Below the pieces are notes generated by a model, which was not told where the DNA came from, searched no databases, and worked only from the letters and a program-made list of their open reading frames with translations. Source: an uncultured Sphingomonadales bacterium (GTDB taxonomy: Bacteria > Pseudomonadota > Alphaproteobacteria > Sphingomonadales > Sphingomonadaceae). From it: a stretch of 64,000 bases of DNA. The stretch lies in the NCBI GenBank assembly GCA_937870585.1, contig CALMZE010000007.1:29064-93063 (forward strand). The letters run 5' to 3'. Both the position numbers and the translations under genes were made by a program. Below, one piece after another: positions 30,614 to 51,239 of this stretch (the stretch's first letter is position 1; each line of letters starts with the position of its first letter).

Positions 30614-31600
30614 ATGTTCGACTTTCTGAAAAAGCAATTCGTTGATGTCATCGAATGGCTGGAGGAACCCGGACAACTCGCCTGGCGCGTGCCCTTTGAA
30701 GACCATGAAATCCAGAATGGCGCGCAGTTGACCGTGCGGGTGGGGCAGATTGCTGCCTTTGTGAATGAGGGGCAACTGGCTGATTTCTTTGGGCCCGGTC
30801 TCCACACGCTCGATACAGCGAACCTGCCGATCCTGACCAATTTGATGAACTGGGACAAGGCGTTCAAGAGCCCGTTCAAGTCCGATGTCGTGTTCTTTTC
30901 GATGCGCGAGCAGGCCGGGCTAAAATGGGGCACCAGCCAACCGATCACCGTGCGCGACGCGGAACTGGGGCCGATCCGCATCCGCGCCTTTGGCACCTAT
31001 TCGTTCAAGATCGACGCGCTGGAGCCGGTCATCCACCGGGTTTTGGGCACCACCAGCGGCATTGAGGCGGCGACGCTGGAGATGCAGTTGCGCTCTGTCA
31101 TCAACACGGCGATTGCCACGGCGCTCGGCGGAAGCGGCATAAAGTTTCTTGATCTGGCGGCCAGCCAGCGGACTTTGTCTGATACGATCAAGGTCGAAGT
31201 GGACAAGGCTTTTGCCGATTGGGGGCTGAGCTGCCTGACCTTCTTTGTGGAAAGTGTGTCATTGCCCGATGATGTTCAGGCACATCTCGATAAGGCAGCC
31301 TCGATGCGCGTGGTGGGTGATCTGGATCGTTTCGTCAAATTCCAGGCCGCTGAAGCGCTAGAGAAATCGGCTGGGCAGGATGGCGGACTGGGCGGCATGG
31401 GCGCGGGCATGGCTGCCGCCGTGGCGATGGGCAACGTCATGTCGCAGGGCCTGTCTGGCGGAAGCGCGCCCGCCACTGCCGCTCCGGCCGAAGACCCGTT
31501 TGAGCTTATTGAAAAGCTGCACAAATTGCTGACGATGGGCGCGCTCTCGCAAGCTGAATTCGATGCCAAAAAGGCCGAACTGTTGCAGCGGGTCAAGTAA
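30614..31600 (+). CDS. SPFH domain protein (YdjI-like) with SHOCT-like tail
   Basis: FVDVIEW, EIQNGAQLTV, FGPGLHTLDTANLP, KWGT.QP; C-terminal IEKLHKLL.MGALSQAEFDAKK. Confidence 0.85.
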   Translation: MFDFLKKQFVDVIEWLEEPGQLAWRVPFEDHEIQNGAQLTVRVGQIAAFVNEGQLADFFGPGLHTLDTANLPILTNLMNWDKAFKSPFKSDVVFFSMREQAGLKWGTSQPITVRDAELGPIRIRAFGTYSFKIDALEPVIHRVLGTTSGIEAATLEMQLRSVINTAIATALGGSGIKFLDLAASQRTLSDTIKVEVDKAFADWGLSCLTFFVESVSLPDDVQAHLDKAASMRVVGDLDRFVKFQAAEALEKSAGQDGGLGGMGAGMAAAVAMGNVMSQGLSGGSAPATAAPAEDPFELIEKLHKLLTMGALSQAEFDAKKAELLQRVK

Positions 31601-31626
31601 GCAGCAGCGGGGCGGGGAGACGCGGA

Positions 31627-32295
31627 ATGGCCGAATTGCCATGTCCTTCATGCGGGGCGCCAGTGCCGGTTCGCAGCGCCGCGCTGCCTTATGTCACCTG
31701 CGCCTATTGCCAGACGCTGATCCGTCGCGAGGGGGAGGCCCTGTCCGCCATCGGCAAGAGCGCGGTGCTGCCCTTTGATGTGTCGCCCATCCAGCTCGGC
31801 TCCGCTGGTCGCTTTTCTCTCATACGCTTCCGCGTGGTGGGCAGGGTCCGCTGGGGATGGAGCGACGGATCATGGAATGAATGGCTGCTCGATTGCAGCG
31901 ACGGCACGCCGCGCTGGCTGGGCGAGGCGATGGGCAGTTTCATGTTGACGGCCGAACAGCCCGATTTGCTCGAACGGCGCGAACTGGCAGGTTTTGCTGC
32001 TGGCGGTCCGCTGCACTTGAGAACCCGCCTGGCGATTGAGGGCGAAGTCTATGTCGCCTGCGACATCAAGGAGGCCAAGTGCCTGGGCAGCGAGGGCGAT
32101 CTGCCCCGCCCGACGCCTGAAGGGACACCCCTTACGAGTGTGGATTTTCGAGGAACGGCGGGGGGCTTTCTCAGCGTGCAGCGCGATGCAGAGGGTGTGA
32201 GCGCATGGCGGGGCAACGCGGTTGATCTCGCCGCGCTCAACACGGTGGATCTGCGCCAGATTGAAGGCTGGACCATCCCGGCGGCACTGCGATGA
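31627..32295 (+). CDS. DUF4178 protein with N-terminal zinc ribbon
   Basis: CPSCG...CAYC; VVGRVRW...WNEWLL. Confidence 0.75.
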   Translation: MAELPCPSCGAPVPVRSAALPYVTCAYCQTLIRREGEALSAIGKSAVLPFDVSPIQLGSAGRFSLIRFRVVGRVRWGWSDGSWNEWLLDCSDGTPRWLGEAMGSFMLTAEQPDLLERRELAGFAAGGPLHLRTRLAIEGEVYVACDIKEAKCLGSEGDLPRPTPEGTPLTSVDFRGTAGGFLSVQRDAEGVSAWRGNAVDLAALNTVDLRQIEGWTIPAALR

Positions 32296-33611
32296 GCGCG
32301 GCGCGGGCAATCACCTGCCCCCAATGCGGTGGGGCCATCGCGATCAAGGCCGCAGGCTATACGGTTTCGGTTGGCTGCCAGCATTGCGGCGCGCTGCTCG
32401 ATGTGGCGCACCCCGATGTGACGGTGATAGCCGCTTATGAAGACGCAATGCGCGGCCTGCCGGTTCCGCTCGGACGGCGCGGCACTTTGTTTGGTGACGA
32501 ATGGGAAGCGATTGGCGCGCTCAGCCGCCATGATTATGATGTTGAATGGACCGAGACGCTGCTGTTCAACCCCTATCTGGGGTATCGCTGGCTGGTGCTG
32601 AGCGAGGGCGAGTGGAGCCTTGGCACCATGATTACAGACCCTCCCCAAGGCAGTGGCGAGGATATTGAGTGGCGCGGCGAGGCTTTCCATCAGGATTATA
32701 ATCTGGCTGAAACCATCACATCGCATGTGGTGGGCGAGTTTTACTGGCGCGTTGCAGCGGGAGACACAGTGGCGGCGACCACTTACAGCCGTCGGGACAC
32801 GCTTCTTTCTGCCGAATGGAGCGGAGACGAAGGCAGCTGGACGCAGCTCGTCCCCGTCTCTGCTCAAGATGTTCGGCAGGCTTTTGGACTGTCAGGAGTG
32901 GATGTGGGTGACAGCCCCGCTCCAAGGCGCAAGGCCAGACCCTTGGGATTATCCCGTTCGGCGGGTGCAGAAGCTGGCGACAATTTCATGACTCGTTTGC
33001 GTGCGGATTATGACGCCGCCGACATCATGGAAAAATCCGATCTGCCCAAGATGTTCAAAATGGGCGTGGCGGCTTTTCTGATCTCGCTATTGATGATGAT
33101 GGGTTTCACGACATCCAGCGATACTGTGAACAATTATGGCAGAGTGAAGGTTGGCGGGCCAGAAGTGACGGTCAATGTCGGTCAGATTTCGCTCAACGCA
33201 CCCTATCAGCCTGTCGAAATCGACGCGTTCGGCACTGGTTTTGAAAATGCGTGGGTTGATATCAACTATACGCTGATCAACCGCAAGACGCAGCGCGGCT
33301 ATACCGCTTATGGCGTGATAGAACGTTATACCGGTCGCGACAGTGAAGGGCCGTGGAGCGAGGGCAGCTTCTATGCGACAACCCAATTTTCGGGCATCCC
33401 GCGTGGCACCTATGATGTCGTGGCGGACCTGAAGGCAAATCGCTGGAACGGCGGAGCAGCACTGAACACGACCCCCACATGGGATGGTTCGCAAGAATTT
33501 TCGGTCAACCTGACGGCCACATCGGGTGGATTCATGTGGGGCAATTTGTGGTTGATCGCAGCTTTGCTGCTGGGAATGCCCATCTTGATCTTCTGGATGC
33601 GCCACTCATAG
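32292..33611 (+). CDS. DUF4178 membrane protein with N-terminal zinc ribbon
   Basis: CPQCG...CQHC; WTETLLFNPYLGYRWL, VVGEFYWRV; two TMs. Confidence 0.8.
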   Translation: MSAARAITCPQCGGAIAIKAAGYTVSVGCQHCGALLDVAHPDVTVIAAYEDAMRGLPVPLGRRGTLFGDEWEAIGALSRHDYDVEWTETLLFNPYLGYRWLVLSEGEWSLGTMITDPPQGSGEDIEWRGEAFHQDYNLAETITSHVVGEFYWRVAAGDTVAATTYSRRDTLLSAEWSGDEGSWTQLVPVSAQDVRQAFGLSGVDVGDSPAPRRKARPLGLSRSAGAEAGDNFMTRLRADYDAADIMEKSDLPKMFKMGVAAFLISLLMMMGFTTSSDTVNNYGRVKVGGPEVTVNVGQISLNAPYQPVEIDAFGTGFENAWVDINYTLINRKTQRGYTAYGVIERYTGRDSEGPWSEGSFYATTQFSGIPRGTYDVVADLKANRWNGGAALNTTPTWDGSQEFSVNLTATSGGFMWGNLWLIAALLLGMPILIFWMRHS

Positions 33612-33627
33612 GGATCCGAATTGAACG

Positions 33628-33771
33628 ATGACCAAACGCCTCTACATTTATGCTGCATGGTGCCTGTTCATCATCATGGGCACGACTGCGTCATCCTTTT
33701 TCGCATGGATGCCCTTTTCTGATGAGGATGATGGCGGTGGCACCACCATGCGCGGACCAAGCCATAAATAG
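33628..33771 (+). CDS. 47-aa single-TM protein (absent from ORF track)
   Basis: MTKRLYIYAAWCLFIIMGTTASSFFAWMPFSDEDDGGGTTMRGPSHK fills the operon gap. Confidence 0.7.
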   Translation: MTKRLYIYAAWCLFIIMGTTASSFFAWMPFSDEDDGGGTTMRGPSHK

Positions 33772-33807
33772 CGAGTTAGCCTAGACAAAATTGAAGGGAA
33801 CGATCCG

Positions 33808-34017
33808 ATGCTGAGCACTGACATATTTCTGGCCACGATCCTTTATGCTGGCGTTGGCATATTGATCTTCATCTTCAGCTTCGTGCTGGTCGACCGGCTG
33901 ACGCCCGGCGAACTGTGGCGCGAGATCATCGAGCGTCAGAACACCGCCGTCGCGATATTGGCCGGGGCCGTGGCGATTGGCATTTCGACGATCATCGCTG
34001 CTGCCGTGCATGGCTGA
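33808..34017 (+). CDS. DUF350 family small membrane protein
   Basis: DRLTPGELWREIIERQNTAVAIL...IIAAAVHG. Confidence 0.85.
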   Translation: MLSTDIFLATILYAGVGILIFIFSFVLVDRLTPGELWREIIERQNTAVAILAGAVAIGISTIIAAAVHG

Positions 34018-34063
34018 AGCACCCTCACGCACAGTTGGGCGCGGGCGTCACGCCTGATCCATC

Positions 34064-35590
34064 ATGACTGAACCCGCTGAGAAATCGGACGCGTCTCTGG
34101 CGCTGATCCTGCTCTTGTCCGTCCTGATCGTGGCGACGTGCGGGCTGATTTACGAACTGCTGGCGGGCACGCTTGCATCCTATTTGCTGGGAGACAGCGT
34201 TACCCAGTTCTCCACCGTGATCGGCACCTATCTGTTTGCGATGGGGATTGGCAGCTGGCTCTCCCGCTATGTAACCGGCGATGCGATGGGCGTGTTTGTG
34301 CGCGTGGAAATGCTGATCGCGCTGATTGGCGGCTGGTCTGCTGCCGGGCTGTTCATTCTGTTTCCGCTGGTCGCGGATTTTCGCTTTGCGTTGTACACCC
34401 TGGTGCTGGTGATCGGGCTGATGGTGGGCCTCGAAATCCCGCTGCTGATCCGCATTCTGCAACGCCGCTTTGCCTTTCATGAACTCGTCTCCAACGTGCT
34501 GACGGTCGATTATGTGGGTGCGCTGGTCGCTTCCGTGCTGTTCCCGCTGGTGCTGGTGCCGCAACTGGGGATGATCCGCACCGGCTTTGTCTTTGGTCTC
34601 GCCAATGTCTCTGTCGCGATTGCGCTGCTGATCATCCTGCGCAAGGCGCGGCGGACCGCGCCCGACATGGCGGCTGCCCTACTGGTGATGGCGAGCCTGA
34701 TTGCCGGGCTGATCTTTGCCGAGCGGATGCAGCGCTGGTCTGAAGTCGCCTTTTATCAGGAACCGGTGATCTACGCCCGCTCCACGCCCTATCAGCGCAT
34801 CGTGCTGACCCGACGCAACGATGATCTGCGGCTCTACCTCAACGGCAATCTGCAATTCTCCTCACGCGATGAATATCGTTATCATGAGGCGCTGGTGTGG
34901 CCGACTTTGGGCCGCGTCGCGCAGCCCGCGCAGGTGCTGGTGCTGGGCGGTGGAGACGGGCTCGCGGCGCGCGAAATCCTGAAGGACAAACGGGTAGAGC
35001 GCGTCACTCTGGTGGACCTCGATCCGGAGATGACACATTTGTTCCGCGAGACGCCGCAACTCGCCGCGCTCAATGGACAGGCCTTCACCTCGCCGCGCGT
35101 TTCGGTTCACAATGCGGATGCGTTTCGCTGGGTTCGGCAGGCACAAGGCCGCTATGATGCCATCCTCATCGACTTTCCCGATCCCACCGAATTTTCGCTG
35201 GGCAAGCTCTACACTGAAAATTTCTATCGCGAGGTCGCGCGGTTGCTTGCGCCCGGCGGCGTAATGGCGGTGCAGAGCACATCCCCGCTCATTGCCCCGC
35301 GCAGCTACTGGACAGTTGCGACGACGCTCGAAGCCGCAGGACTCACGGCGCGCGGCTATCACGCCTATGTGCCGAGTTTCGGCGAATGGGGCTTCACCAT
35401 GGCGGCGCACGGCCCCATCCCGCCGCTGGCAACACTGCCCGCTGGCCTGCGCTTTCTCACGCCCGAAAGCGAGGCGCTGATGTTCGACTTTCCGCCCGAC
35501 ATGGCTCGCCGCGCGACCCCGGTGAACCGGCTCGATAATCAGGCGCTAGTCCGCAGCTTCTCCGAAGAATGGGCGCCCTATGAGGGCTGA
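34064..35590 (+). CDS. speE: Polyamine aminopropyltransferase with N-terminal 7-TM domain
   Basis: GLIYELL TM domain; YHEALV, LVLGGGDG, VDLD, DAF, DFPDP. Confidence 0.88.
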   Translation: MTEPAEKSDASLALILLLSVLIVATCGLIYELLAGTLASYLLGDSVTQFSTVIGTYLFAMGIGSWLSRYVTGDAMGVFVRVEMLIALIGGWSAAGLFILFPLVADFRFALYTLVLVIGLMVGLEIPLLIRILQRRFAFHELVSNVLTVDYVGALVASVLFPLVLVPQLGMIRTGFVFGLANVSVAIALLIILRKARRTAPDMAAALLVMASLIAGLIFAERMQRWSEVAFYQEPVIYARSTPYQRIVLTRRNDDLRLYLNGNLQFSSRDEYRYHEALVWPTLGRVAQPAQVLVLGGGDGLAAREILKDKRVERVTLVDLDPEMTHLFRETPQLAALNGQAFTSPRVSVHNADAFRWVRQAQGRYDAILIDFPDPTEFSLGKLYTENFYREVARLLAPGGVMAVQSTSPLIAPRSYWTVATTLEAAGLTARGYHAYVPSFGEWGFTMAAHGPIPPLATLPAGLRFLTPESEALMFDFPPDMARRATPVNRLDNQALVRSFSEEWAPYEG

Positions 35591-37196
35591 TCGGCGCGGC
35601 GTCCTGGCGGGCGGATCGGCGCTGGCCGCAACCGCGCTGCTGCCCGCCGGATGCGCGGACCGCCCGCTTGTCCCCGGCACGCTGAGCGGACCAGACATGA
35701 CGCGCGGCCACCGGTTGAGAGACGGCACATACCCGGCCCCCAGCGGCCCGCCAGCGCGCATCGGCATCGCGATTGCCGGGGGCGGCGTGGCGGGCCTCTC
35801 AGCTGGCTGGACGCTGCTCGACGCAGGCTTTACCGATTTTGTGCTCTACGAACTAGAGGATGAGACGGGGGGCAATGCGCGGTCTGATCGCAATGCAGTC
35901 TCGGCCTATCCGCTCGGCGCGCATTATCTGCCCGTCCCCAATCGCGAGGCCAAGGCGCTCCGGCACATGCTGGAGCAGTTCGGCATCATCACCGGGGCGG
36001 ATACGGCGGGCGCACCCCGCTTCGATCCTCTGCAACTCTGTGCAGATCTGGAAGAGCGGCTGTTCTGGCGCGGCAAATGGCAGGAGGGGCTTTATCCGCA
36101 ATCCGGTTTAAGCGCAGAAGAGCAAAGCCAACGTGATCGCTTCTATGCCCGGATGGCGGAGTTTCGCGCGGCGCGCGGCGCAGATGGCCGCCCCGCTTTT
36201 GCCAGCCCATCGGCCTATTCGAGCCAAGACCCACACTTCACCGCGCTGGACCAGCAGAATTTTTCTGATTGGCTGACACAGCAGGGCTTCACTGCACCCG
36301 CACTGCGCGCCCATCTGCGCTATTGCTGCCGGGACGATTATGGCACCGAGCCCGAGCAGGTCTCGGCGTGGGCGGGGCTCCATTATTTTGCCGCGCGGCG
36401 CGGTTGGGCCGCTGATGAGCAAGGCGATGCCGAGCTGACCTGGCCCGAAGGCAATGGGCGGCTGATTGCGCTGATGCGGGCGCGGCTGAAGGATCATATC
36501 CGCACAGCGTCCCCCGTGCTTCGCGCCGCCCCCGATGGAGTAGGCGTGCTGATCGACCGGTTCGATTCCCACCGAGGCCAGACCCGGCAGACGAGCGCGG
36601 ACTGCGCGATCCTCGCCATGCCCTATTTCGTCGCTCACCGCGTTGCGCCCGCGCTCTCGCCCGCGCGCGGATTCAGCTATGCGCCATGGGTGGTTGCCAA
36701 TGTAACCGTCAGCCGCCTGCCGCGCGGCCCCGGCGCGCCGCTCGCATGGGACAATGTGTCAGCTGGAAGCGACTCGCTGGGCTATGTCGTCGCCACGCAC
36801 CAGAACTCCAGCGCGGGCGATGGCCCTTCGGTGCTGACCTGGTATATGCCGCTATCTCGGCTGTCCCCCAAGACGGCACGCGAGGCGTTGCGAAGCCGGA
36901 GCCTCAGCGCATGGCAGCAGATCGTCCGCGATGATCTGCTGCAGATTAACCCTGATCTCGATGGAGCCATCGACAGGATTGACGTGTGGCGTTGGGGCCA
37001 TGCGATGATCCGCCCCACGCCCGGTTTCCTGAGTGATCCGGCGCGGATGGCCGCCTCCGCACTCTCACCGCCGCTGTTGCTGGCCCATTCGGACCTGTCA
37101 GGCCTCTCTCTGTTTGAAGAAGCGCATTATCGCGGCGTCGCGGCTGCCGAAGCAGCCTTGCGCGCGCGCGGTCATACGTTCACCAGCCGCATCTAA
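35580..37196 (+). CDS. FAD-dependent oxidoreductase (amine oxidase-like), twin-arginine-like N-terminus
   Basis: DRRGVL; GGGVAGL Rossmann; YPLGAHY; RWGHAM; FEEAHYRG. Confidence 0.85.
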   Translation: MRADRRGVLAGGSALAATALLPAGCADRPLVPGTLSGPDMTRGHRLRDGTYPAPSGPPARIGIAIAGGGVAGLSAGWTLLDAGFTDFVLYELEDETGGNARSDRNAVSAYPLGAHYLPVPNREAKALRHMLEQFGIITGADTAGAPRFDPLQLCADLEERLFWRGKWQEGLYPQSGLSAEEQSQRDRFYARMAEFRAARGADGRPAFASPSAYSSQDPHFTALDQQNFSDWLTQQGFTAPALRAHLRYCCRDDYGTEPEQVSAWAGLHYFAARRGWAADEQGDAELTWPEGNGRLIALMRARLKDHIRTASPVLRAAPDGVGVLIDRFDSHRGQTRQTSADCAILAMPYFVAHRVAPALSPARGFSYAPWVVANVTVSRLPRGPGAPLAWDNVSAGSDSLGYVVATHQNSSAGDGPSVLTWYMPLSRLSPKTAREALRSRSLSAWQQIVRDDLLQINPDLDGAIDRIDVWRWGHAMIRPTPGFLSDPARMAASALSPPLLLAHSDLSGLSLFEEAHYRGVAAAEAALRARGHTFTSRI

Positions 37197-37198
37197 CC

Positions 37199-37552
37199 AT
37201 GACCCAGCGCGATCATCCCCACGGCCTCCATCTGATAGCGGACCTTTCCGCGTCTACCGGTCTGGCCGATCCGGCTTTTGTGGAGCGCGTCTTGCGCGAC
37301 GCGGCCAGCGCCGCCCGCGTCACCTTGATCGATCTCCGCCTCCACCATTTCGGTGAATCCAGCGGGGTGACTGGCGTAGCTCTGCTCGCGGAATCGCATA
37401 TTTCGATCCACACTTGGCCAGAGCATGAGTTGATTGCCATCGACATTTTCACCTGCGGTGCCGATGCCCGGCCAGAAGCGGCGCTGGAATGCATCGCGCG
37501 TCACTTCAAGGCGAGTGTGCTGCGCCAGCAACAGATTAATCGGCTCGCCTGA
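37199..37552 (+). CDS. speD: S-adenosylmethionine decarboxylase proenzyme (class 1B)
   Basis: LLAE-SHISIHTWPE cleavage motif, DIFTCG. Confidence 0.9.
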   Translation: MTQRDHPHGLHLIADLSASTGLADPAFVERVLRDAASAARVTLIDLRLHHFGESSGVTGVALLAESHISIHTWPEHELIAIDIFTCGADARPEAALECIARHFKASVLRQQQINRLA

Positions 37553-37581
37553 TGACTTGCCCTTGATCTTGCATTGGACTT

Positions 37582-42782: not shown

Positions 42783-42788
42783 CCGCGA

Positions 42789-43481
42789 TCAGCGCGCGCG
42801 TTCTTCCATCACGGCCCGCACCTTGGGGTTGGCTTCCTTTGCAATGTCCGCCGGAGTGATCGATTGCGGATCAAACGCAATCTGGCGTGAAACCGGCACA
42901 CCGTTCCAGCGCACACCCACCGGATCATATAGTTCGGGAAGTTCCTGAATCCCGCTGCCTGCCACATCAATCCAGGATGTGACCACCAGCCCCGGCGGCA
43001 AGTCCGCAATGCCGCTGCAACCGGACAGGTCCAGCACGGCCACTTCGCCGAGATTTTCGGGAAGCGCCTTCAGCGACCCGCAGCCAGACAGGTTCAACCT
43101 GCCGCCCCGCATGTTCAGATCGTCCGGCAAGGCGGTCAGCGCGGTGCAGCCCGACAGATCGAGGAACGCCACATCCATCCCGGCTGGCAGGCGCGTCAGG
43201 CCTGTGCAGCGGGCAAGAGACAGCGATCCGGTGTGAATGCCATCCGGCAAGTCACGCAGTTGCGCACAATCAGAGAGATTGACCGCAATATCGGCCGCAG
43301 CCGGAATCTCCGCTTTCGCAAACGCGCTGCCTTGCGCATTCATCATGCGCTTTCCGGCGGGCGTATTGCGCGGCGGCGGGGGTCCGGGGGTGCGGCGCGC
43401 TGTTTGCGCTGCCGAAGCAGGGGCAGCGGCGGGTGAACCGCTGCCGCCGAAAAACCGGGCAATGGTCTTGAAGATGGACAT
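42789..43481 (-). CDS. Leucine-rich-repeat protein
   Basis: About five LxLxxCxxLxxLP repeats; ends IAFDPQSIT...EANPKVRAVMEERAR. Confidence 0.8.
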   Translation of the reverse strand: MSIFKTIARFFGGSGSPAAAPASAAQTARRTPGPPPPRNTPAGKRMMNAQGSAFAKAEIPAAADIAVNLSDCAQLRDLPDGIHTGSLSLARCTGLTRLPAGMDVAFLDLSGCTALTALPDDLNMRGGRLNLSGCGSLKALPENLGEVAVLDLSGCSGIADLPPGLVVTSWIDVAGSGIQELPELYDPVGVRWNGVPVSRQIAFDPQSITPADIAKEANPKVRAVMEERAR

Positions 43482-43511
43482 GGCTTCTCCTTCGTCTGCG
43501 CCGAGCGGCAT

Positions 43512-46500
43512 TCAAAACTGGGTAACGCGGGCGAGATGCGGGTCAACAAGGAATAGGCGGCCAAATTGGTCAGCCAACAATACCGTGCCACTTGAGGCCG
43601 TGCGTGCGTGGGCTCTCGCCGGGACGCGCGCGAGCGGTATCAACTGGGTTTCCGCATGATGATGGAGTGAAAATTCCCGTTTGTCTTGCCCATCAGTTCG
43701 GATCACCGTCACCAACTTCCCGTCAACGGGGACGTTCGGATCGGGCGCGATCAAGACAGGCCGCCCGAAATCGCAGGGCATGAACTGGTCAAACACGCCC
43801 GCCTCAGCGCGCGGTTGCATCAGTTTGCGCGCGCGGGCCTCTCCGTCTTCGCTCCACAGCGAATAGGCCATGATGATGGTCTGGTCAGACAAGGCGCTAA
43901 ACGTCCGGCCCACCGTTTGGCTCCCCCAGGCCCAGGTGACTGTGGGAAGCAGCTCACCCGCGTCCGCAGGCTGCCCCTGCCGATAGCCATGGCAGATTGC
44001 TGTGGTGAGATGCCCACGCTCCTGCAAGCGCCACCATTCGGTCACGCCCTGCCGATCAGGCGAGACATCGATGGTGATCCAGGACGACGCATCCTCTTCA
44101 TGCAGAAAGGCAATAGCGCGCAGACGATCCGTGAGGGCGCACGACCAGAGAAACACAACGCGCGGCATGGCAGCGCACAGGGCAGCCAGATCGAGCGCGC
44201 CAATCTCGCTTCCCACTTGCACCAGCCAAGCCAGTTCGGATGTGACATCATGATGCGCGAGCAGGTTGACACGCCCGACCGGATGGAGCGAACGGCGCGC
44301 GGTATCGAAGCGCGTGATGCGTGTCAGTCCGTCCTTTTCGCGTTGCAGGATCAGGGCATGGGCACCACCGCCCACCGCCACCAACGCAGACACGTCACTC
44401 ATCGCCTGCCGCCAGATCACAAGACCATTGGCATCGATCAACTCAAGCTGCTGATTGTCTCGCCACGCCAAAATCAGGCCTGTGCCAAGGACGCAAGCCG
44501 CCAAGACCGGTGACGAGGTGACGAGCGGCTCGGGCACGAGCCAGTGACGCCGGGCAGGCGGCGCGGCGCGAAAGAGTTTGCGCAATGCGCCGAGATCACG
44601 GGCCAGCACCTTATGCCCGCTCTCTTGCAGCAAATGGACCAACTGATCCACATCCTGCGGGTTCAATTGGGCCGAAGCCTGACGCAGCACAGTGTTGGCC
44701 AGCCCTTCGAGCAGGGCAGACCCGGCCCCGTCCCAGAAGCCCATTTGCTCATCCGACCGGCGCGCTGCCAGACGGCGCATCGCGGCGAGCAGAGCAAGCA
44801 GGGCTTCTCCCTCTCCCTCGCGCAACATCAGGCTGCGCAAGTCCGCCAGTGCATCAGCGAGCAGCGGATCACCAACATGGGGCAGCGTGCGCGGAAATCC
44901 GGCAAGCTGGGCTGAATCGCCCGGCGCATGGCACAAGAGCGTGCGCGCCAGCGGTTCGGGCGCGAAGTTCCCCGGCTCAATTGACTTCATAGTCTCTTCT
45001 AGCCAGCCCCGGCGCAGATCGAGCAAGGCGCGGTCCACTCCAGCCTGACGCGCCAGATCATCGGTTACCTGCAAGGCCCGCAGCGGCTGACCGGATGCAA
45101 CCAGCGTGTCGGTCCAGCCTCTCAGCACAAAAGCATGATATTCGGCATCACCATTCCGGCTTTGCGCGGCCAGTTGCTCAAAACAGCCGGACCGATGCGC
45201 CAGCGCCAGCGCAGCCTCCTGCTTGCCAGCCGTATAGAGCAGCCGGATGGTCAGCACCGGATCGACTTTCGCCCCCAATGCCAGCCGAATGGCCTCTTCC
45301 ATCATGTCACCGCGTTCCAGCAATCGGACGGCGGCATCATTCTGTGCCAGAAGCTGCGAACGGATATAGGCCGCGCGCTTCATATCGCCTTCGGATTCGA
45401 GCTGTGTGGCCAGATCCTCATAAGTCTGGCGCATCTGCCAGCTCAGGTTCTCCGGCAGGACGGGCACTTCAAACGCGTCGCCTCCCAGATCGAAATCGAG
45501 TCGTGCCCGCGCAGCCGGAAGCTGACGGGGATAGCGGCGCGGGAGTTTGCGCGCCCCCTGCCCCCCACCCAACCGGATGGCCAGCCGCAAGGCATCGTCA
45601 ATCATGCCGCGCGCAGCCAGTGCCTTCACCTGCTGCGCCCGCGCCTCCAACTGCCTTGTGAGCGATCCGAACGGGTTCTTCCACGCCAGCCAGCCCAGCA
45701 GATTGTCGAGCAGGCCGGGCGTGCTCGGCTGGTGCGCAGCAGTTTCAGCCTTATCCTCTGCGCCCGCCAGTAGCCCGCGCACGAAACGGGTGAGGACGAA
45801 GACCAACACCATCAGCGAGATCGGTGCGCTCCGCGAGATAGCGGATAGGAGCAGAAGGAGACCGGCAGCATAGAGCACGAAGCGCAGCAGCCTGCCCATC
45901 GCAGGCAGAAGCCCGAGACCACCGCGCGCCCAGCCGACGAAGGAGCGGCGGCGACCCAAACTCTCCTTCAGATCCGAAAACGGGTCTGCCCGGCGACTGG
46001 GGACCAGTTCGACAAGGCTTGCACTTGCCTCTGCCTTAACCGGCACCAGCACCGCGCTGGGCGCGGCCGATTGGCGAGCCTCAACCCGGTCAGCATGACG
46101 CGCGACAGACTCTGGCCGCACGCCGGGATGCAGCATCACCTGCGGCATGTCCCATAAGAGCGAGAGCGGAAGCCTCTCCAGCACGTCCAGCGCAATGCGC
46201 TTCGCCCCTCCCCCCCACCAGATATCGACCGCGCGGACCGCACCGCCCAGCACAGGCGCGTCAACCGCGCGCCGCGCCGCATGGCTGGCGAGCGTCCCCG
46301 GCGCGCTCGCGACCAGCGGCAGAGCGGCGGGATGGTCAAGCCCGTGCGCCTTGGGTGGGCCATCGAACAGGATCACCAGCAGTTCACGTTGATGTGCGTC
46401 CGATCCGATCAAGCCCCGCCGCATCTCGCGCACTTGATCGCGCAGCCGGGCGAGCGGCGGCAGGCTGCCACCCGGCGGACGGATGAATGCCAGCGCCTGA

Positions 46501-46589
46501 CAGGGCTGATCAGAGGGGAAAACGGCAACCTCTGGCAGGGCGCGCGGTAAAGTCTCACGCGCGCGGATGGCGGCCTGACTGTGCCGCAT
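43512..46589 (-). CDS. bpX6-like large protein of MoxR-vWA-beta-propeller system
   Basis: TM segment, DDALRLAIRLG...TYEDL...RAAYI...LLER helical repeats, beta-rich C-terminus; TGATG coupling. Confidence 0.65.
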   Translation of the reverse strand: MRHSQAAIRARETLPRALPEVAVFPSDQPCQALAFIRPPGGSLPPLARLRDQVREMRRGLIGSDAHQRELLVILFDGPPKAHGLDHPAALPLVASAPGTLASHAARRAVDAPVLGGAVRAVDIWWGGGAKRIALDVLERLPLSLLWDMPQVMLHPGVRPESVARHADRVEARQSAAPSAVLVPVKAEASASLVELVPSRRADPFSDLKESLGRRRSFVGWARGGLGLLPAMGRLLRFVLYAAGLLLLLSAISRSAPISLMVLVFVLTRFVRGLLAGAEDKAETAAHQPSTPGLLDNLLGWLAWKNPFGSLTRQLEARAQQVKALAARGMIDDALRLAIRLGGGQGARKLPRRYPRQLPAARARLDFDLGGDAFEVPVLPENLSWQMRQTYEDLATQLESEGDMKRAAYIRSQLLAQNDAAVRLLERGDMMEEAIRLALGAKVDPVLTIRLLYTAGKQEAALALAHRSGCFEQLAAQSRNGDAEYHAFVLRGWTDTLVASGQPLRALQVTDDLARQAGVDRALLDLRRGWLEETMKSIEPGNFAPEPLARTLLCHAPGDSAQLAGFPRTLPHVGDPLLADALADLRSLMLREGEGEALLALLAAMRRLAARRSDEQMGFWDGAGSALLEGLANTVLRQASAQLNPQDVDQLVHLLQESGHKVLARDLGALRKLFRAAPPARRHWLVPEPLVTSSPVLAACVLGTGLILAWRDNQQLELIDANGLVIWRQAMSDVSALVAVGGGAHALILQREKDGLTRITRFDTARRSLHPVGRVNLLAHHDVTSELAWLVQVGSEIGALDLAALCAAMPRVVFLWSCALTDRLRAIAFLHEEDASSWITIDVSPDRQGVTEWWRLQERGHLTTAICHGYRQGQPADAGELLPTVTWAWGSQTVGRTFSALSDQTIIMAYSLWSEDGEARARKLMQPRAEAGVFDQFMPCDFGRPVLIAPDPNVPVDGKLVTVIRTDGQDKREFSLHHHAETQLIPLARVPARAHARTASSGTVLLADQFGRLFLVDPHLARVTQF

Positions 46590-48547
46590 CACATGTCCTC
46601 CGTGCAGCGGAGTTGCGCTGCACTGTTGCAAAGTTCTTCCAGCGAGAGGCGCTCTGTGTGCGATGTTCCGTGAGCGGGCTTGAAATTGTAGCGGAGCAGA
46701 TCTTGCGGCACGCCCTGCCTGTCACAGGCGACTGCCCAGAATACGCCATTGATGCGCAGGAGCGCGGCAATCCGACCTGCATCCGCGCCCAGATCCAGCG
46801 TCGCCTTATCTCGCGTTCGCCGCCCGCCAGAAAAGCGGCAGGATTCGATCACGCCCTCCCCGCCGAGCGCCGCATCAGACCAGATCTGCGCCTGCACACC
46901 ATTATTCTTGGCCACTGCATCGATGACACGCTCGACCGGCTCCACCTGAAATTGAAGCGCAGATGGCGACAGCGGGTGGTTGTAATGGCTATCGCTTTGC
47001 AGAACCGACCATTGGCCCGGCTGAATGGCGCAGGCCAGCGCGTTCTTTTCTGCGGCCCAGGCTATCCCGTGGAACGTCTTTGGCAATCTGGTACAATCGG
47101 GCAGGTAGTAGCTCGCCGATTCTCCTTCATTGCGCTTGATCACCTGCATGAACGCATGGCCACTTTGCATATAGCCCGCGATCTGGTCTGCCCCGGTGGA
47201 CAGCAAGATGCGGCGCGCTGAATATTTCGCTGAAAAGCGCCACGTCCAGCGATCAATGGCCTGCAGCACATAAGTCTGGCCGGAAGTTGAGTAAAATTCG
47301 ACGTCTCTCACACTATTCATACTGGGCAGTGCATAAGGGGAGCGGTTGTCGAACAGATGCTGGCTCGGCACGGCGTAGGACAGGATGGATGGTGCGTCGT
47401 GATTCTGGCCAGGCTTCAACTCAAACCGAAAATAGACAAGCCGCTGCTCGCCCTGCTGGACCTGATGATAGAGCACAAAAAGTTGATCATGGCGTACGGC
47501 AATCCCCGCCAGCAAGATGTCCGCTGGCAAGGGCAAGAACCAGTGCGCCTGCTGGGCACCGGCGGCGTTCACCTTCAGGATAAGCAGCCCGTACGCCACG
47601 CGCACCGCGCGATAATTCCCCGCCGGAGCAGACAGATAAAGCGGTTCCCATCCCGGCATTCCTGCGACGCTGTGGCTCTCCTGCCCCCCATCCCGCACGC
47701 GGACAGGGGCGGGAAAGGGCTTCTCCAGTGCGGACAGGCATTTTGCATCTGGCGCGAGTTCGATCCGCGCTGAATGGAGGCTGTGGCCGCCGCGCCTGAC
47801 GGTCAGCCGGGCCTCACGCGGCGTATCCCGCATTGGCGGCTGGAGGATGAAAGACAAAGCGTTGCGCTGCCTTGTGATCGCCGGAGCTTCGCCGCCCCAA
47901 TCGCGGGCAGACCCGATCACCCAATCCGCGACCTCTGGGCTCTTTGGCCGCGGTCTTTCCCCCGTGGCTTCGGCCCAGACCGCGCGCGCGTCTGCCAGAT
48001 CCTCATCATGGACTTCGCGAAACGCCCCAGACCGCAGGAAGCGCTTGATGCTGTTGACCGAAATATCGGTGAACCAGACAGCGCCCTCCGCCCGCGGCAG
48101 GAAGCACCAGTGAAACGCCGCACCCCGTTTTGCTGCCACGCGCGCCAGAAAGAACAGCGCCGCGAGCGCCACCAATCGGCCATGGCCCAATATATCCGGC
48201 CCTGCTGACAACACGACGCGCCACACAGGCCGCGTGCCGGGATCCGCATAGATGCGATCATGATAGAGTGTTTCAGATTCGGCCAGCCGCCGCAGAAATT
48301 CAAGTGGGGCCTCGGTCCGCAGCAGCAGCTCGCTTTGCAGGATATGATCAATCTCACCATGCAGCGTCAGGCCGCCCAAACCTTCAAATTCGCCTTGTTC
48401 GGCAAACTCCCGCTGCTCCAGCCCGCGTGCGAGCGGTTCGAACTGGATCAGTTGGCCGCACAGCACATCGGCCAGCGGGCGGGACAGCAGCGCGAGCACG
48501 GGCAGAAAGGGCGCATAGGCCGGAGGGAGCGAATCGGGCGCGCTCAT
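46589..48547 (-). CDS. Degenerate vWA-like MoxR partner with beta-rich C-terminus
   Basis: GEFEGLGGL...SELLL..E.PLEFLRR..ESE.LY pre-vWA motif; VLSAGPDILG where MIDAS DxSxS is expected. Confidence 0.6.
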   Translation of the reverse strand: MSAPDSLPPAYAPFLPVLALLSRPLADVLCGQLIQFEPLARGLEQREFAEQGEFEGLGGLTLHGEIDHILQSELLLRTEAPLEFLRRLAESETLYHDRIYADPGTRPVWRVVLSAGPDILGHGRLVALAALFFLARVAAKRGAAFHWCFLPRAEGAVWFTDISVNSIKRFLRSGAFREVHDEDLADARAVWAEATGERPRPKSPEVADWVIGSARDWGGEAPAITRQRNALSFILQPPMRDTPREARLTVRRGGHSLHSARIELAPDAKCLSALEKPFPAPVRVRDGGQESHSVAGMPGWEPLYLSAPAGNYRAVRVAYGLLILKVNAAGAQQAHWFLPLPADILLAGIAVRHDQLFVLYHQVQQGEQRLVYFRFELKPGQNHDAPSILSYAVPSQHLFDNRSPYALPSMNSVRDVEFYSTSGQTYVLQAIDRWTWRFSAKYSARRILLSTGADQIAGYMQSGHAFMQVIKRNEGESASYYLPDCTRLPKTFHGIAWAAEKNALACAIQPGQWSVLQSDSHYNHPLSPSALQFQVEPVERVIDAVAKNNGVQAQIWSDAALGGEGVIESCRFSGGRRTRDKATLDLGADAGRIAALLRINGVFWAVACDRQGVPQDLLRYNFKPAHGTSHTERLSLEELCNSAAQLRCTEDM

Positions 48548-48966
48548 ACGGAAACCGGGTCTCGGAGATGGACAGGATAAGCATCGACATCGCAGCTGAA
48601 CGATCTGGAGCCAAAGCGCGGCACGATGATTACGGGCGGAGCCCAGCCCGCATGGCGCGCAAAATCTTTCAGCAATTCGGCCTGCGCGGAATCGGGCACA
48701 TCAAGCGCGCTGCCAACCGGAAACCACCATCCGCTTTGCGCCTGATAGAGCGGAATCGCCCCTGCGATACGCGGCAGGACGGGCTGATCCTCTCCCTGCA
48801 AGGGACGACCGAACAGCGCAGCCCAATCTACGCCGACTGCAAAGGGCAGGCTGCGTGCGAAAGCCGGCTTGGCAAGCAGCGCTGCATCCAGCCTTGCGGA
48901 AGCCTCATCACCGATCAGCAGCAGGGCATCGACCGCCTGCACCGGATCAACCCGGCGCCAGTGCAT
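48544..48966 (-). CDS. bpX5-like small protein
   Basis: MHWRRVD...LP..AGAIPLY...WW.PVG..LDVP; coupled to MoxR gene. Confidence 0.55.
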   Translation of the reverse strand: MHWRRVDPVQAVDALLLIGDEASARLDAALLAKPAFARSLPFAVGVDWAALFGRPLQGEDQPVLPRIAGAIPLYQAQSGWWFPVGSALDVPDSAQAELLKDFARHAGWAPPVIIVPRFGSRSFSCDVDAYPVHLRDPVSV

Positions 48967-50165
48967 CAGGCGTCCGCACCCAAGGCGGACTGTCCCGCCG
49001 CACCTGTCCCCTTGTGTCCGGCGGCAAGGACAGCCTCGATGCTGGTGTGGAGCGCCCGCACATCCTGCGGCATGGCATCCGGCGAGAACGCAGCCTCGAT
49101 CCGCGTCAGCATCGTCTCCAGCCGGACCAGCCAATGTTCAAACAGACGATCCGTCTCCAAAGCGGGGCGCGCCTGCAACAGCTGAGCGGCCTGCTCCGCC
49201 AGCAAGGCGGCATGGGCAGCCAGCCCATGCGTCGCCTGCGCCACGCTGCTCGTCAGAACGGGATTACGGCTCTGCTCCAGTTCGACATGGAGCAGATCGC
49301 GCACCTCCTGCTGTCGCTCGCGCGACTGGACAAGATAGGTGACCGGCCAGAGATCCTCCGCGCCCGCCTTCATGTTGCCACGCAGCAGAGCCGCCGCCGC
49401 AATCAGCTTGAGCCCCTTGACCAGCTTGCGGTCTGAAATCGGCACGCCGGTCAGGCGGATTTTGCGGACGATATGCGCATAGTCCTCCCTTACGCCTCCA
49501 ACATCAACAGTGAGGATCGCCGCCTGAAGCCGCGCCAGCACCGACCGGTCGAGCGGCGGAACCGGCGCGTTGCCCGCCAGCGTTTCACGCCACCCGGCAT
49601 CGAGCAGCGCAGGAAGCTGATCCTCCCCAACCGGATCAACGAACATCGTCACCAGAAACCGATCAGCAAACGCCGCCAATGCAGCGTCTTCGGGCAATTC
49701 GTTCGATGCTGCGATGCAGGAGATCAGCGGCACCTGCGTCTGGAACTGGCCCCGCCGATAGGTGCGCTCGTTGAGGATTTTGAGCAGCGAGTTGAGAATG
49801 GCGGTCGAACCCAGAAAAATTTCATCGAGAAAGGCGACCTCGGCTTCGGGCAACATCCCGCTCGTTACCGGTCGCACCTCGCCGTCGCGTAACGCCGCCA
49901 GATCGAGCGCACCGAACAACTCGCCCGGCTCTGTGAAGCGTCCGATCAGATATTCGAAGGATCGCGCATCCACGGCCCGCGCCATGGCCTGCACCGCCGC
50001 CGATTTGCCGGTCCCCGGCGGGCCGATCAGCAACACATGTTCGCGCGTCAGCAAACCCAGCATGACCAGCTCAAGCAGCGCGCGCCGCGATACGAATTGC
50101 CCCGCCAATGCATCAAGATGCGCATTAACCTGTTCAATTGCGCCCGAAATTTCACCTTGATCCAT
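48966..50165 (-). CDS. MoxR/RavA family AAA+ ATPase
   Basis: REHVLLIGPPGTGKS, YLIGRFTEPGELFG, FLDEIF, ILNERTY, ASNELP, DRF. Confidence 0.92.
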   Translation of the reverse strand: MDQGEISGAIEQVNAHLDALAGQFVSRRALLELVMLGLLTREHVLLIGPPGTGKSAAVQAMARAVDARSFEYLIGRFTEPGELFGALDLAALRDGEVRPVTSGMLPEAEVAFLDEIFLGSTAILNSLLKILNERTYRRGQFQTQVPLISCIAASNELPEDAALAAFADRFLVTMFVDPVGEDQLPALLDAGWRETLAGNAPVPPLDRSVLARLQAAILTVDVGGVREDYAHIVRKIRLTGVPISDRKLVKGLKLIAAAALLRGNMKAGAEDLWPVTYLVQSRERQQEVRDLLHVELEQSRNPVLTSSVAQATHGLAAHAALLAEQAAQLLQARPALETDRLFEHWLVRLETMLTRIEAAFSPDAMPQDVRALHTSIEAVLAAGHKGTGAAGQSALGADA

Positions 50166-51225: not shown

Positions 51226-51239
51226 TAAGTATATACTTA
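51226..51239. promoter_or_regulatory. Candidate TetR operator 1
   Basis: Perfect palindrome TAAGTATATACTTA upstream of the VOC gene. Confidence 0.6.

Follow-up and report, generated by a model that had tools for sequence, protein, structure and literature searches.

A polyamine operon, an STM4011-STM4015 cassette and a MoxR system side by side in an uncultured Sphingomonadales bacterium: probable mosaic of modules

Layout of the locus

Do genes that are packed almost without gaps on two converging strands belong to one system? The question is raised by a 19.5-kb span of the window (the whole stretch of 64,000 nucleotides that was analysed), where 13 plus-strand genes (30614-42782) converge stop-to-stop on 5 minus-strand genes (42789-50165). 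We placed all 17 recognisable genes in families; the array and its convergent partner are real, and each family assignment of the first-pass annotation was checked. The reading that we favour, and consider somewhat probable, is that three autonomous modules (A, B and C) make up the span as a mosaic, with B and C forming a recurrent composite and A being a lineage-specific neighbour. The features are as follows.

30201..30276, plus: tRNA-Ala(GGC), 337 bp 5' of module A, context only
30614-37552, plus: module A, Band-7/SHOCT, DUF4178, DUF350, 7TM-SpeE, amine-oxidase, SpeD operon
30614..31600, plus: gene A1, Band-7/SPFH with C-terminal SHOCT (PF13421, Band_7_1, E 2.4e-67; PF09851, E 2e-6) and a Gly/Ala/Met-rich segment
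31627..32295, plus: gene A2, Zn-ribbon and DUF4178 (PF13785, E 2e-11)
32292..33611, plus: gene A3, Zn-ribbon and DUF4178 (PF13785, E 9e-14); two TM segments predicted by hydropathy scan (254-272, 418-436)
33628..33771, plus: gene A4, 47-aa ORF kept in closest relatives; no gene call in the public assembly
33808..34017, plus: gene A5, DUF350 (YjfL family), 2-TM (PF03994, E 1e-13)
34064..35590, plus: gene A6, 7TM-SpeE (NF002956, E 1e-199; PF01564, E 4e-31)
35580..37196, plus: gene A7, FAD amine oxidase (PF01593, E 6e-13)
37199..37552, plus: gene A8, class 1b S-adenosylmethionine decarboxylase (SpeD), last of module A (TIGR03330, E 6e-33)
37553..37626, plus: A-B boundary spacer, 74 bp (29 bp if STM4015 starts at ATG 37582)
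37627-43511: module B, STM4015 to STM4011 with the convergent LRR gene
37582..38556, plus: gene B1, STM4015 family LRR protein, likely start GTG 37627 (NF038076, E 5e-85)
38553..39734, plus: gene B2, STM4014 family, ATP-grasp-like (NF038074, E 8e-74)
39710..40564, plus: gene B3, STM4013/SEN3800 alkaline-phosphatase-superfamily hydrolase, start likely at 39731 (NF038075, E 3e-114; PF00884, E 3e-6)
40561..41877, plus: gene B4, STM4012 HemN-like radical SAM (NF006067, E 8e-164; PDB 1olt HemN, E 4e-30)
41859..42782, plus: gene B5, STM4011 radical SAM (NF038073, E 1.5e-110)
42789..43511, minus: LRR protein, 240 aa, truncated DUF6745; homologues adjoin STM4011-15
43512-50165, minus: module C, four-gene beta-propeller-type MoxR ternary system
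48966..50165, minus: gene C1, MoxR-type AAA+ ATPase of the beta-propeller ternary-system clade (PF20030, bpMoxR, E 3e-77; AAA_5, E 5e-24)
48544..48966, minus: gene C2, 140-aa protein, in the position of the bpX5 protein of locus L199
46589..48547, minus: gene C3, 652-aa protein, N-terminal alpha/beta domain and C-terminal beta-propeller
43512..46631, minus: gene C4, third component of about 1030 aa, next to the 650-aa protein and 3' of it in every C locus

All six overlapping junctions claimed earlier (DUF4178a/b, SpeE/oxidase, 4015/4014, 4014/4013, 4013/4012 and 4012/4011) were recovered, STM4012 starting across the STM4013 stop (GTGA). The convergent stop codons (42782 and 42789) lie 6 bp apart, and a consensus scan found no terminator at this junction, as had been stated; the junction also has no more folding potential than its shuffled versions (z 0.08). 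The stated 46-bp limit on the gaps applies only with the STM4015 start at ATG 37582. With the homologue-supported GTG 37627, which is preceded by an AAGGA Shine-Dalgarno sequence and gives the 309-aa protein of the public gene call, the SpeD-STM4015 gap becomes 74 bp, the widest in the array, and it coincides exactly with the boundary between A and B. No att-like repeat of the tRNA-Ala(GGC) 3' end was found elsewhere in the window.

The polyamine operon and its boundary

Module A encodes a 7-TM N-terminal domain (7 predicted TM segments) fused to a spermidine-synthase-like aminopropyltransferase carrying GGGDG and DFPDP motifs. SpeD has its ES self-processing site intact (LLAESHISIHTWPE), and the FAD amine oxidase is probably exported, since its N-terminus has a twin-arginine motif (RRGVL) followed by Cys25. 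The 47-aa ORF is matched by tblastn at 53% identity over its full length in three loci (L089, L091, L092), and Novosphingobium relatives keep it. Clusters of AdoMetDC, MFS-SpdSyn-fusion and DUF350 genes were reportedly described by Li, Kurihara, Kim, Liang and Michael (Biochem J, 2019). The closest counterpart is the Band-7 + 2TM + SHOCT variant of the PSP-associated polyamine operons (Ravi et al. 2024, mSystems, PMC11237479), with which module A shares Band-7+SHOCT, DUF4178, DUF350 (YjfL), the 7TM-spermidine-synthase fusion, AdoMet decarboxylase and polyamine oxidase, as well as the absence of the PspA/CesT pair from the operon. There is no essential difference between the two; features of the window operon are its two DUF4178 paralogues, the conserved 47-aa ORF, the twin-arginine signal on the oxidase and, in this lineage only, an unrelated cassette abutting the 3' end. 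Module A is already described computationally in the 2024 and 2019 studies. The earlier view of the modules as uncharacterised is fair for experimental function, but A and C both have computational descriptions (PMC11237479, PMC7159879).

The polyamine module had been joined with STM4011-15 into one system, and lack of co-localisation in other genomes had been named as the finding that would speak against this. We counted neighbours around STM4011 and SpeE in the best 80 of more than 560 matches on each side. No polyamine-module gene was found around STM4011 (0 of 80 loci, 55 of which extend 3 kb or more to either side), nor any STM or MoxR gene around 7TM-SpeE (0 of 80, 52 with at least 5 kb downstream), so that the pair is together in none of the 160 sampled loci and the joining is not upheld. 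Homologues of the Band-7 gene (44-81% identical) head the operon in 40 of these 80 SpeE loci, and Sphingomonadales relatives (SpeE 59-84% identical) keep the A gene order with the operon ending at SpeD; the gene that follows in the nearest relatives examined is usually convergent. On the other side, four close STM4011 relatives (67-72%) were recovered; three reach upstream of STM4015 (the contig of L257 is too short), and none of the three has a polyamine module there. One of them, L258 (STM4011 67%, MoxR 84% identical), has the B, LRR and C block of the window without A, and unrelated minus-strand genes upstream of STM4015; the other two (L081 and L085, 69-70%) have B with the LRR gene alone, 3' of a LysR gene.

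From these gene neighbourhoods, module A appears independent of B and adjacent to the others in this lineage only. Neither a terminator nor a sigma-70-like promoter is recognisable between SpeD and STM4015, and the spacer aligns weakly with the STM4015 upstream region of relatives lacking module A. Since there is no terminator between the modules, A may read through into B here, which would be transcriptional piggy-backing and not a shared pathway; with the tight spacing, co-expression of the two in this organism is possible.

Adjacency of the STM cassette and the MoxR system

Each of the five STM proteins scores above its NCBIfam curated cut-off, and the window has them in the commonest order (4015>4014>4013>4012>4011), found in 44 of the 59 complete loci among the best 80 of more than 560. 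STM4015 matches PDB 2ra8 (E 6e-36), whereas Pfam ATP-grasp matches of STM4014 are weak and under cut-off. STM4011 has a Cys-rich C-terminal region and an AF2 model (pLDDT 87) whose closest folds are anSME, SkfB, BtrN and viperin (TM about 0.5). No experimental function for STM4011-STM4015 was found in the literature searched. Unlike the Salmonella prototype, which stands alone between ompL and typA, the window cassette is flanked by SpeD and a MoxR system.

The minus-strand genes had been taken as a five-gene MoxR operon. Its four core genes are conserved, but by comparative data the fifth, an LRR gene, belongs with the STM genes. An LRR protein in each operon, as first described, is verified (STM4015 and the 240-aa protein). 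A homologue of the latter gene adjoins B in 26 of 80 loci (again the best 80 of more than 560), 25 of them with a partner of about 98 aa, and it is absent from all C-only loci; it therefore appears, from gene order, to be an accessory conserved with the STM genes and outside the MoxR core. A Methylobacterium plasmid carries it with B as a 7-gene co-directional operon. The window thus has the convergent LRR-DUF6745 gene seen in about a third of the sampled STM4011-15 loci, placed last, on the 3' side, in the string of MoxR genes as throughout the window clade, but differs in that the usual upstream partner of about 98 aa is missing and the protein is truncated, lacking the first 70 or so and the last 85 or so residues of the usual family (about 340 aa) and keeping only the start of DUF6745. 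It matches plant-NLR and XopL-type LRRs and is 48% identical to a Methylobacterium 'DUF6745 domain-containing protein'.

For module C, the first labels were 'vWA-bpX'. The ATPase is indeed bpMoxR, with an ordinary P-loop (GPPGTGKS) and a start at 50165 (399 aa) that agrees with homologues better than the 365-aa gene call. The labels on the other three core proteins are unsupported by sequence models, because none has a Pfam match even at E 10, the bpX0-bpX6 models included; no MIDAS motif was found in them either. The 652-aa protein (AF2 pLDDT 85) hits WD40- and BamB-type propellers in Foldseek, its N-terminal alpha/beta domain is presumed to be a divergent vWA, and its 85 homologues are almost all alphaproteobacterial and every one unannotated. 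The third component combines a globular N-terminal part with 2 TM segments (248-289), a helical stretch and a C-terminus rich in beta structure, and tblastn matches it (E 1e-8) with the L199 protein that bears bpX6; homology of the 140-aa protein to bpX5 is not demonstrable. Module C fits the gene plan of subsystem 4 of the MoxR-vWA beta-propeller ternary systems, described without conventional effectors (Kaur, Burroughs, Iyer and Aravind 2020, eLife, PMC7159879). It has the bpMoxR-clade ATPase, a second component of about 650 aa with a C-terminal beta-propeller, a third of about 1030 aa with variable N-terminus, TM segments, helical region and beta-rich C-terminus, a small extra conserved protein and the occurrence in Proteobacteria; it differs in that its non-ATPase components fit no Pfam bpX0-bpX6 model and lack a MIDAS motif.

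The proposed link between STM4011-15 and the MoxR operon is supported by direct adjacency in six gene orders from distant lineages (three alphaproteobacterial orders, Acidobacteriota, Planctomycetota and one marine metagenome contig), with no gene between B and C in any of the six.

Architecture 1: window, L257, L258
Architecture 2: L012, Paracoccaceae
Architecture 3: L007, Phycisphaeraceae, with Pfam bpX0-4
Architecture 4: L175, Hellea
Architecture 5: L199, Acidobacteriota, bpX5 and bpX6; C then co-directional B
Architecture 6: L267, marine metagenome contig; B then co-directional C

B was present in 3 of 31 loci with adequate flanks when searching from C, and C in 2 of 80 when searching from B (best 80 of more than 560). 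A rough binomial gives the chance of immediate adjacency as 2e-6 (C side) and 1e-3 (B side), values that are optimistic because accessory modules tend to cluster in islands. The neighbour state is that of a minority; about 90% of C and about 97% of B loci have no partner nearby.

Weighing the readings and possible roles

The earlier model of a single 18-gene system, in which scaffolds, LRRs, MoxR and all enzymes would yield a polyamine-derived modification, stood on the one-system reading, of which the B-C link survives and the joining of A to B does not. The tight packing of the 13 plus-strand genes and the unmarked SpeD-STM4015 spacer speak for it, as does the use of SAM or its derivatives by all three enzyme sets. 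The same arrangement occurs in a 73.8 kb ENA assembly contig (possibly of the same source as the window), and an assembly artefact is probably not involved, the longest contig on record for the same protein being 98.4 kb. Yet the A-B junction is missing from the 160 sampled loci and from the three close relatives, it is the widest spacer of the array with a Shine-Dalgarno sequence of its own at GTG 37627, and A and B are each conserved by themselves in hundreds of species of many phyla, B in Salmonella included. We regard this model as very improbable. A stronger rival, still unlikely, is that the three modules have no functional coupling at all, B and C being mobile cassettes that share variable regions, insertion sites and islands. 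They are indeed mostly apart (28 of 31 C loci without B, 78 of the best 80 of more than 560 B loci without C). Allosphingosinicella deserti has both on separate contigs, C in L259 lies beside integrase fragments and NAD-salvage genes, B occurs on plasmids and megaplasmids and twice on a single Deinococcus contig (L017, L018), and conflict operons often cluster generically (PMC7159879). Such sharing of islands fits poorly with a gene-free contact in six of six architectures and lineages from three phyla, with the operon-like, co-directional L199 and L267 (gaps of about 150-200 bp), and with the position of B's LRR partner, which abuts C wherever the flank is readable (window clade, L012, L007), 22-30 bp behind the last C gene in the window clade.

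A mosaic with B-C as a recurrent composite leaves room for several roles. Module A is the PspA-less, Band-7/SHOCT variant of polyamine-linked envelope-stress operons; judging from the families and the 2019 work, SpeD would supply decarboxylated SAM, the membrane-embedded SpeE-like enzyme would pass its aminopropyl group, at the membrane, to some acceptor that is not putrescine, the oxidase, probably exported, would turn over the product, and the Band-7, DUF4178 and DUF350 proteins would serve as organisers or sensors of the membrane site. Module B is a self-contained cassette of HemN-like and SPASM/twitch-like radical SAM enzymes, an ATP-grasp ligase, an NPP/sulfatase-fold hydrolase and an LRR protein, with an optional pair (a His-rich protein of about 98 aa, then the LRR-DUF6745 protein); it would use SAM and ATP to modify a small molecule or else a protein held by the LRR scaffolds. 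Module C would be an ATP-driven chaperone switch at the membrane. Where adjacent, B and C may cooperate, the MoxR switch either gating or assembling the B enzymes and LRR adaptors or maturing the enzymes' metal centres. The latter, as a coupling outside conflict with MoxR and its partner as a maturation chaperone that would insert or repair the metal centres of the radical SAM enzymes or of the alkaline-phosphatase-fold hydrolase, seems to us quite unlikely: it has precedent in the MoxR-vWA pairs CoxD/E, NorQ/D, CbbQ/O and RavA/ViaA (PMC7159879), B encodes at least three metalloenzymes, and no PADLOC model fits B or C, but B cassettes mostly manage without C, chaperones that insert cofactors do not usually include a large membrane protein of variable N-terminus such as the third C component, and it is the LRR protein and no enzyme that abuts C. 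A precedent for a MoxR-vWA switch beside a radical SAM enzyme is given by the FtsH-type ternary systems, whose stand-alone radical SAM effector has a peptide from a separate gene as its predicted target (PMC7159879); the window differs in that it has no FtsH component and that its B cassette joins two distinct radical SAM enzymes with a ligase and a hydrolase, and no precursor peptide was identified.

As PMC7159879 gives no radical SAM, ATP-grasp or LRR gene link for subsystem 4, the B-C adjacency appears to be so far unreported. Module A being already known, the new lead from this locus is the link between the STM4011-15 cassette and the MoxR system, which is worth testing.

Gene array and junctions

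ORF listing, translation and Pfam and NCBIfam scans upheld the array drawn in the first-pass annotation, which has 13 plus-strand genes (30614-42782) and 5 minus-strand genes (42789-50165), with six overlapping gene pairs and convergent stops only 6 bp apart. For the present analysis the array is divided as follows.

30614-37552, plus strand: module A, encoding a Band_7_1/SHOCT protein (30614-31600), two Zn-ribbon-DUF4178 proteins, a 47-aa ORF, a DUF350 protein, a 7TM-aminopropyltransferase (7TM-SpeE), an FAD amine oxidase and SpeD
37627-42782, plus strand: module B, encoding STM4015, STM4014, STM4013, STM4012 and STM4011
42789-43511, minus strand: gene of a 240-aa LRR protein
43512-50165, minus strand: module C, encoding a ~1030-aa protein with two TM segments, a 652-aa protein, a 140-aa protein and an AAA+ ATPase of the bpMoxR clade (PF20030, E 3e-77, profile positions 2-185 of 205)

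The array is indeed compact, except that the spacer between SpeD and STM4015 is 74 bp long and is the widest gap in it, when STM4015 is started at the GTG at 37627 (behind an AAGGA motif), as homologues and the public gene call indicate. No consensus terminator was found either at the convergent junction, where the fold z is 0.08, or in this A-B spacer, which has a mild non-terminator fold (z -1.8). Beyond the MoxR gene, 50358-52627 holds a TetR regulator gene (minus strand) and then glyoxalase-fold and alpha/beta-hydrolase (esterase) genes, which have no relation to the three modules and in relatives are not kept beside them. The sequence of the window recurs in an ENA metagenome assembly and in the Logan assembly of a public run. 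Fragments of the sequence were found in DNA metagenomes only (activated-sludge and related ones), and the Logan contigs that align at the SpeD-STM4015 junction are so short and diverged that none reaches across it.

Module A and its junction with module B

Module A is an operon of an already described kind. Ravi et al. [quoted passage not shown] 2019. Exactly the same gene set as in this Band-7/SHOCT PSP-associated polyamine operon is found in module A. Its first protein (PF13421, E 2e-67; PF09851, E 2e-6) has SHOCT at the C-terminus, replacing the PspA-CesT/Tir pair, and a hydropathy scan did not detect the '2TM' segment in it, the region being rich in Gly, Ala and Met. The 7TM-SpeE (NF002956, E 1e-199; 7 predicted TM segments) carries the GGGDG and DFPDP motifs and is accompanied by the DUF350 protein (PF03994) and the two DUF4178 proteins (PF13785 twice). 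Fusions of this type reportedly do not make spermidine and use an aminopropyl acceptor other than putrescine. SpeD (TIGR03330, E 6e-33) has its ES processing site intact and the amine oxidase matches PF01593 (E 6e-13). The N-terminus of the latter, MRADRRGVLAGGSALAATALLPAGC (35580-35700, plus strand), has a twin-arginine motif (RRGVL), a hydrophobic stretch and a Cys in a non-canonical lipobox, suggesting that the enzyme may be Tat-exported and possibly lipidated; if it is exported, the polyamine-like substrate of module A would be extracytoplasmic. The 47-aa ORF (33628-33771, plus strand), which follows the second DUF4178 gene and precedes DUF350, is absent from the gene calls of the public assembly and is kept at the same position, in full length and with 37-53% identity, in four Novosphingobium and Sphingopyxis relatives.

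The first-pass annotation had joined SpeD and the polyamine genes to STM4011-15 as one unit, which the comparison of loci does not support from either side. Among the best 80 SpeE loci, the closest of which belong to Novosphingobium and Sphingopyxis (79-84% identity) and place the window in Sphingomonadales, the full seven-gene set of module A is present in 25, and none has an STM401x, LRR or MoxR-system gene within its flanks. The gene order of module A is unchanged in Sphingomonadales relatives; where the nearest of them were examined, SpeD is usually followed by a convergent gene. On the other side, an alignment-based scan gave STM4011 loci from more than 560 species across many phyla, and the best 80 that we inspected (L001-L080) have no polyamine-module gene around STM4011. 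Genomic context was also taken for four of the closest STM4011 relatives. In L081 and L085/L086 (69-70% identity) a LysR gene is followed by STM4015-4011 and then by the convergent LRR gene. L258 (67% identity) repeats the arrangement of the window exactly from module B through the LRR gene and the complete MoxR system; upstream of its STM4015 lie unrelated minus-strand genes and a P450, and no module A. L257 (72%) has the same join of B, LRR gene and C, its contig ending short of the region upstream of STM4015. In Salmonella the five STM genes lie between ompL and the genes of a Cof-type hydrolase, typA and glnA. As module A stands beside module B in none of the loci inspected from either side, in none of the close relatives whose contigs reach upstream of STM4015 and not in Salmonella, the A-B junction is specific to the lineage of the window among the loci covered, and module A is a neighbour of B by chance. 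About 70 nt upstream of STM4015 align weakly with the corresponding regions of L258, L081 and L085, a hint that module B may have brought its own 5' region along. A and B may still be co-transcribed in this genome.

A tRNA-Ala(GGC) gene is present at 30201-30276 (plus strand), 337 bp upstream of module A. A genomic island bounded by it was considered and rejected, as the 25 nt at the tRNA's 3' end have no second copy in the window with up to 3 mismatches allowed and relatives have no tRNA beside operon A.

The STM4011-15 cassette, its LRR gene and module C

All five proteins of module B score above the NCBIfam curated cut-offs in one cluster (285 against 275 bits, 249 against 175, 381 against 250, 546 against 380 and 369 against 200 for the five families), their genes being contiguous with 4- to 19-bp overlaps. 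STM4012 is HemN-like (PDB 1olt, E 4e-30), and the model of STM4011 (pLDDT 87) has SPASM/twitch enzymes and viperins as its nearest structures, with a TM of only about 0.5. PDB sequence searches with STM4011, STM4013 and STM4014 gave no useful match. STM4011 was also considered as an anSME-like formylglycine maturase of the sulfatase-fold STM4013; this candidate was dropped, as a reading of the STM4013 sequence shows no C/S-x-P-x-R motif and an NPP-like appearance (SPASFTYAAHH). Two main gene orders occur among the 59 complete loci of L001-L080, namely the co-directional 4015>4014>4013>4012>4011 (44 loci) and one with 4014 and 4015 inverted downstream of 4011 (13 loci, mostly Myxococcota); the cassette thus behaves as two sub-blocks, 4013-4012-4011 and 4015-4014. 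The cassette with its LRR gene is found twice on one Deinococcus lacus contig (L017, L018) and on several plasmids or megaplasmids of Deinococcus (L072, H2, H6, H9), Methylobacterium and Streptomyces, which suggests that it is mobile.

Clustering of every ORF from the 80 STM loci without prior labels gave only two recurrent non-core neighbours, an LRR family (median 339 aa) with DUF6745 in its C-terminal half (Pfam E 2e-18), and a family of ~98-aa proteins encoded directly upstream of the LRR-DUF6745 gene on the same strand (e.g. L009:3781-4080, minus; L261:2325-2621, plus). By tblastn each is present in 26 of the 80 STM4011 loci and both together in 25. The ~98-aa protein has the motifs RHGDV, GExTGHSHR, HEEH and YRVWxQREY and no match in Pfam or PDB; it matches the phage family phrog_27831 (E 3e-16), and its gene is absent from the window. 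On a Methylobacterium plasmid both genes and STM4015-4011 make up one co-directional operon of seven genes, the LRR protein there (340 aa) being labelled 'DUF6745 domain-containing protein' by PGAP. The LRR protein of the window aligns only to residues 73-255 of this protein (48% identity) and therefore lacks most of DUF6745; relative to the ~340-aa family, about 70 residues are missing at its N-terminus and about 85 at its C-terminus. L081, L085, L257 and L258 share this short form with 64-67% identity, which marks it as a variant of the clade rather than a pseudogene. In L081 (a 70% relative) genes of an Imm11 immunity protein (12423-13127) and a HlyC-type acyltransferase (13669-14274) lie just beyond the LRR gene. 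The 240-aa LRR protein had been counted in the MoxR operon and is there on the minus strand, but its gene was never found in loci with module C only, and it belongs to module B.

In module C, the string of MoxR, 140-aa, ~650-aa and ~1030-aa proteins is conserved in Sphingomonadales and Caulobacterales, and this four-gene plan matches subsystem 4 of the beta-propeller MoxR-vWA ternary systems (Kaur et al. 2020, PMC7159879). In that subsystem the second component has a vWA domain and then a beta-propeller with about four blades, and the third has a variable globular N-terminus and a membrane segment ahead of TPR and beta-propeller regions. The three non-ATPase proteins of the window, and likewise their L258 homologues, have no Pfam match to bpX0-bpX6 or vWA up to E 10; bpX0-bpX6 are present in the related, more distant loci L007 and L199. 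In the AlphaFold model of the 652-aa protein (32 homologues, pLDDT 85), an alpha/beta domain at the N-terminus is followed by a beta-propeller at the C-terminus, for which Foldseek gives WD40- and BamB-type matches. The protein has no vWA match in Pfam or PDB profiles and no DxSxS motif, and its family profile found no match in PDB sequences; it may be noted that the vWA domains of subsystem 4 are described as divergent (PMC7159879). The ~1030-aa third component has its TM segments at 248-289, a sole TPR match at E 0.32, and a match by tblastn to the protein of L199 that bears bpX6 (E 1e-8). Comparison of the 140-aa family with a bpX5 protein by hhalign was not significant (probability 0.3%). 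From the lack of bpX matches we read module C as a divergent alphaproteobacterial subtype of the beta-propeller MoxR system. In its closest complete-genome relative, L259 (652-aa protein 56% identical), the four genes lie between DUF4011/AAA_11-12 helicase and NUDIX, NrtR and NAMPT NAD-salvage genes (1-8225) and phage-integrase fragments (15549-16053), an island-like, conflict-type neighbourhood.

Modules B and C are direct neighbours in five other architectures besides the window clade (the window, L257 and L258), with zero intervening genes in all of them.

Architectures with modules B and C adjacent, outside the window clade
L012, Paracoccaceae: B> <LRR MoxR>...>
L007, Phycisphaeraceae: 4012>4011> <LRR <98-aa bpX4> MoxR>...>
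L175, Hellea: C> <4013 <4014 4012> 4011>
L199, Acidobacteriota: C> 4015>...4011>
L267, marine metagenome: <4013<4014<4015 4012>4011> MoxR>...>

Searching from the C side, B was beside C in 3 of the 31 loci with adequate flanks, and from the B side C was beside B in 2 of the best 80 STM4011 loci. Under a generous null that grants every genome the partner at some position, the chance of such immediate adjacency is about 2e-6 (C side) and 1e-3 (B side). The association is nevertheless a minority state, and A. deserti has both modules unlinked. An alternative reading is that the adjacency reflects island formation only; no flanks conserved with Sphingomonadales relatives were found by which to see whether B and C came as one insertion. 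We take B with its LRR gene and C to be a recurrent composite. The single system proposed in the first-pass annotation is thus supported in part, for STM4011-15 beside the MoxR system, whose direct adjacency recurs, and not for module A, whose co-localisation with B was seen in no other locus examined. The B-C composite appears to be unreported so far. The text of Kaur et al. (PMC7159879) does not mention a radical SAM, ATP-grasp or LRR link for subsystem 4 and describes the beta-propeller MoxR ternary systems as having no recognisable effector. Literature searches (STM4011-15, SEN3800, DUF6745, enzyme combination) gave only incidental expression-table mentions, with no function for STM4011-15 and no mention of DUF6745. 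The defence-system models of PADLOC-DB v2 gave weak generic radical SAM and AAA matches only (E 6e-7 to 2e-3) and nothing for STM4011, 4013, 4014, 4015, the LRR protein or the C components.

Possible roles of the modules

The mechanisms that we infer for the three modules are as follows. In module A, SpeD would supply decarboxylated SAM, from which the 7TM enzyme would transfer an aminopropyl group to an acceptor at the membrane; the oxidase may then handle the product outside the cytoplasm, as its twin-arginine motif suggests, with the Band-7, DUF4178 and DUF350 proteins as putative membrane scaffolds or sensors. For module B, the HemN-like STM4012, the SPASM/twitch-like STM4011, an ATP-grasp ligase and an NPP-like hydrolase together point to a modification that proceeds in several steps and depends on SAM and ATP; a small molecule or an LRR-bound protein could be its substrate. 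Module C would act as an ATP-dependent chaperone switch and, where it adjoins B, may gate, assemble or mature the B machinery. A bolder proposal, which we consider rather unlikely, is that STM4011-15 with the LRR-DUF6745 and ~98-aa partners would be the missing output arm of the beta-propeller MoxR ternary systems. The MoxR switch and the membrane-anchored third component would then sense an envelope or phage insult and release or assemble a two-radical-SAM/ATP-grasp/phosphodiesterase pathway, which would make a toxic or signalling SAM-derived product or modify an LRR-bound protein.

A chance neighbour (A) is now separated from a recurring partnership (B-C), and the earlier model of a polyamine-derived modification is not backed by the comparative data. 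Module A stays a good model for finding the aminopropyl acceptor, a question already posed in the literature. The adjacency of B and C gives each of two orphan systems a candidate partner, and for a cassette as widespread as STM4011-15, which occurs in Salmonella as well, the LRR-DUF6745 and ~98-aa proteins as frequent members suggest possible substrates or partners of the two radical SAM enzymes.
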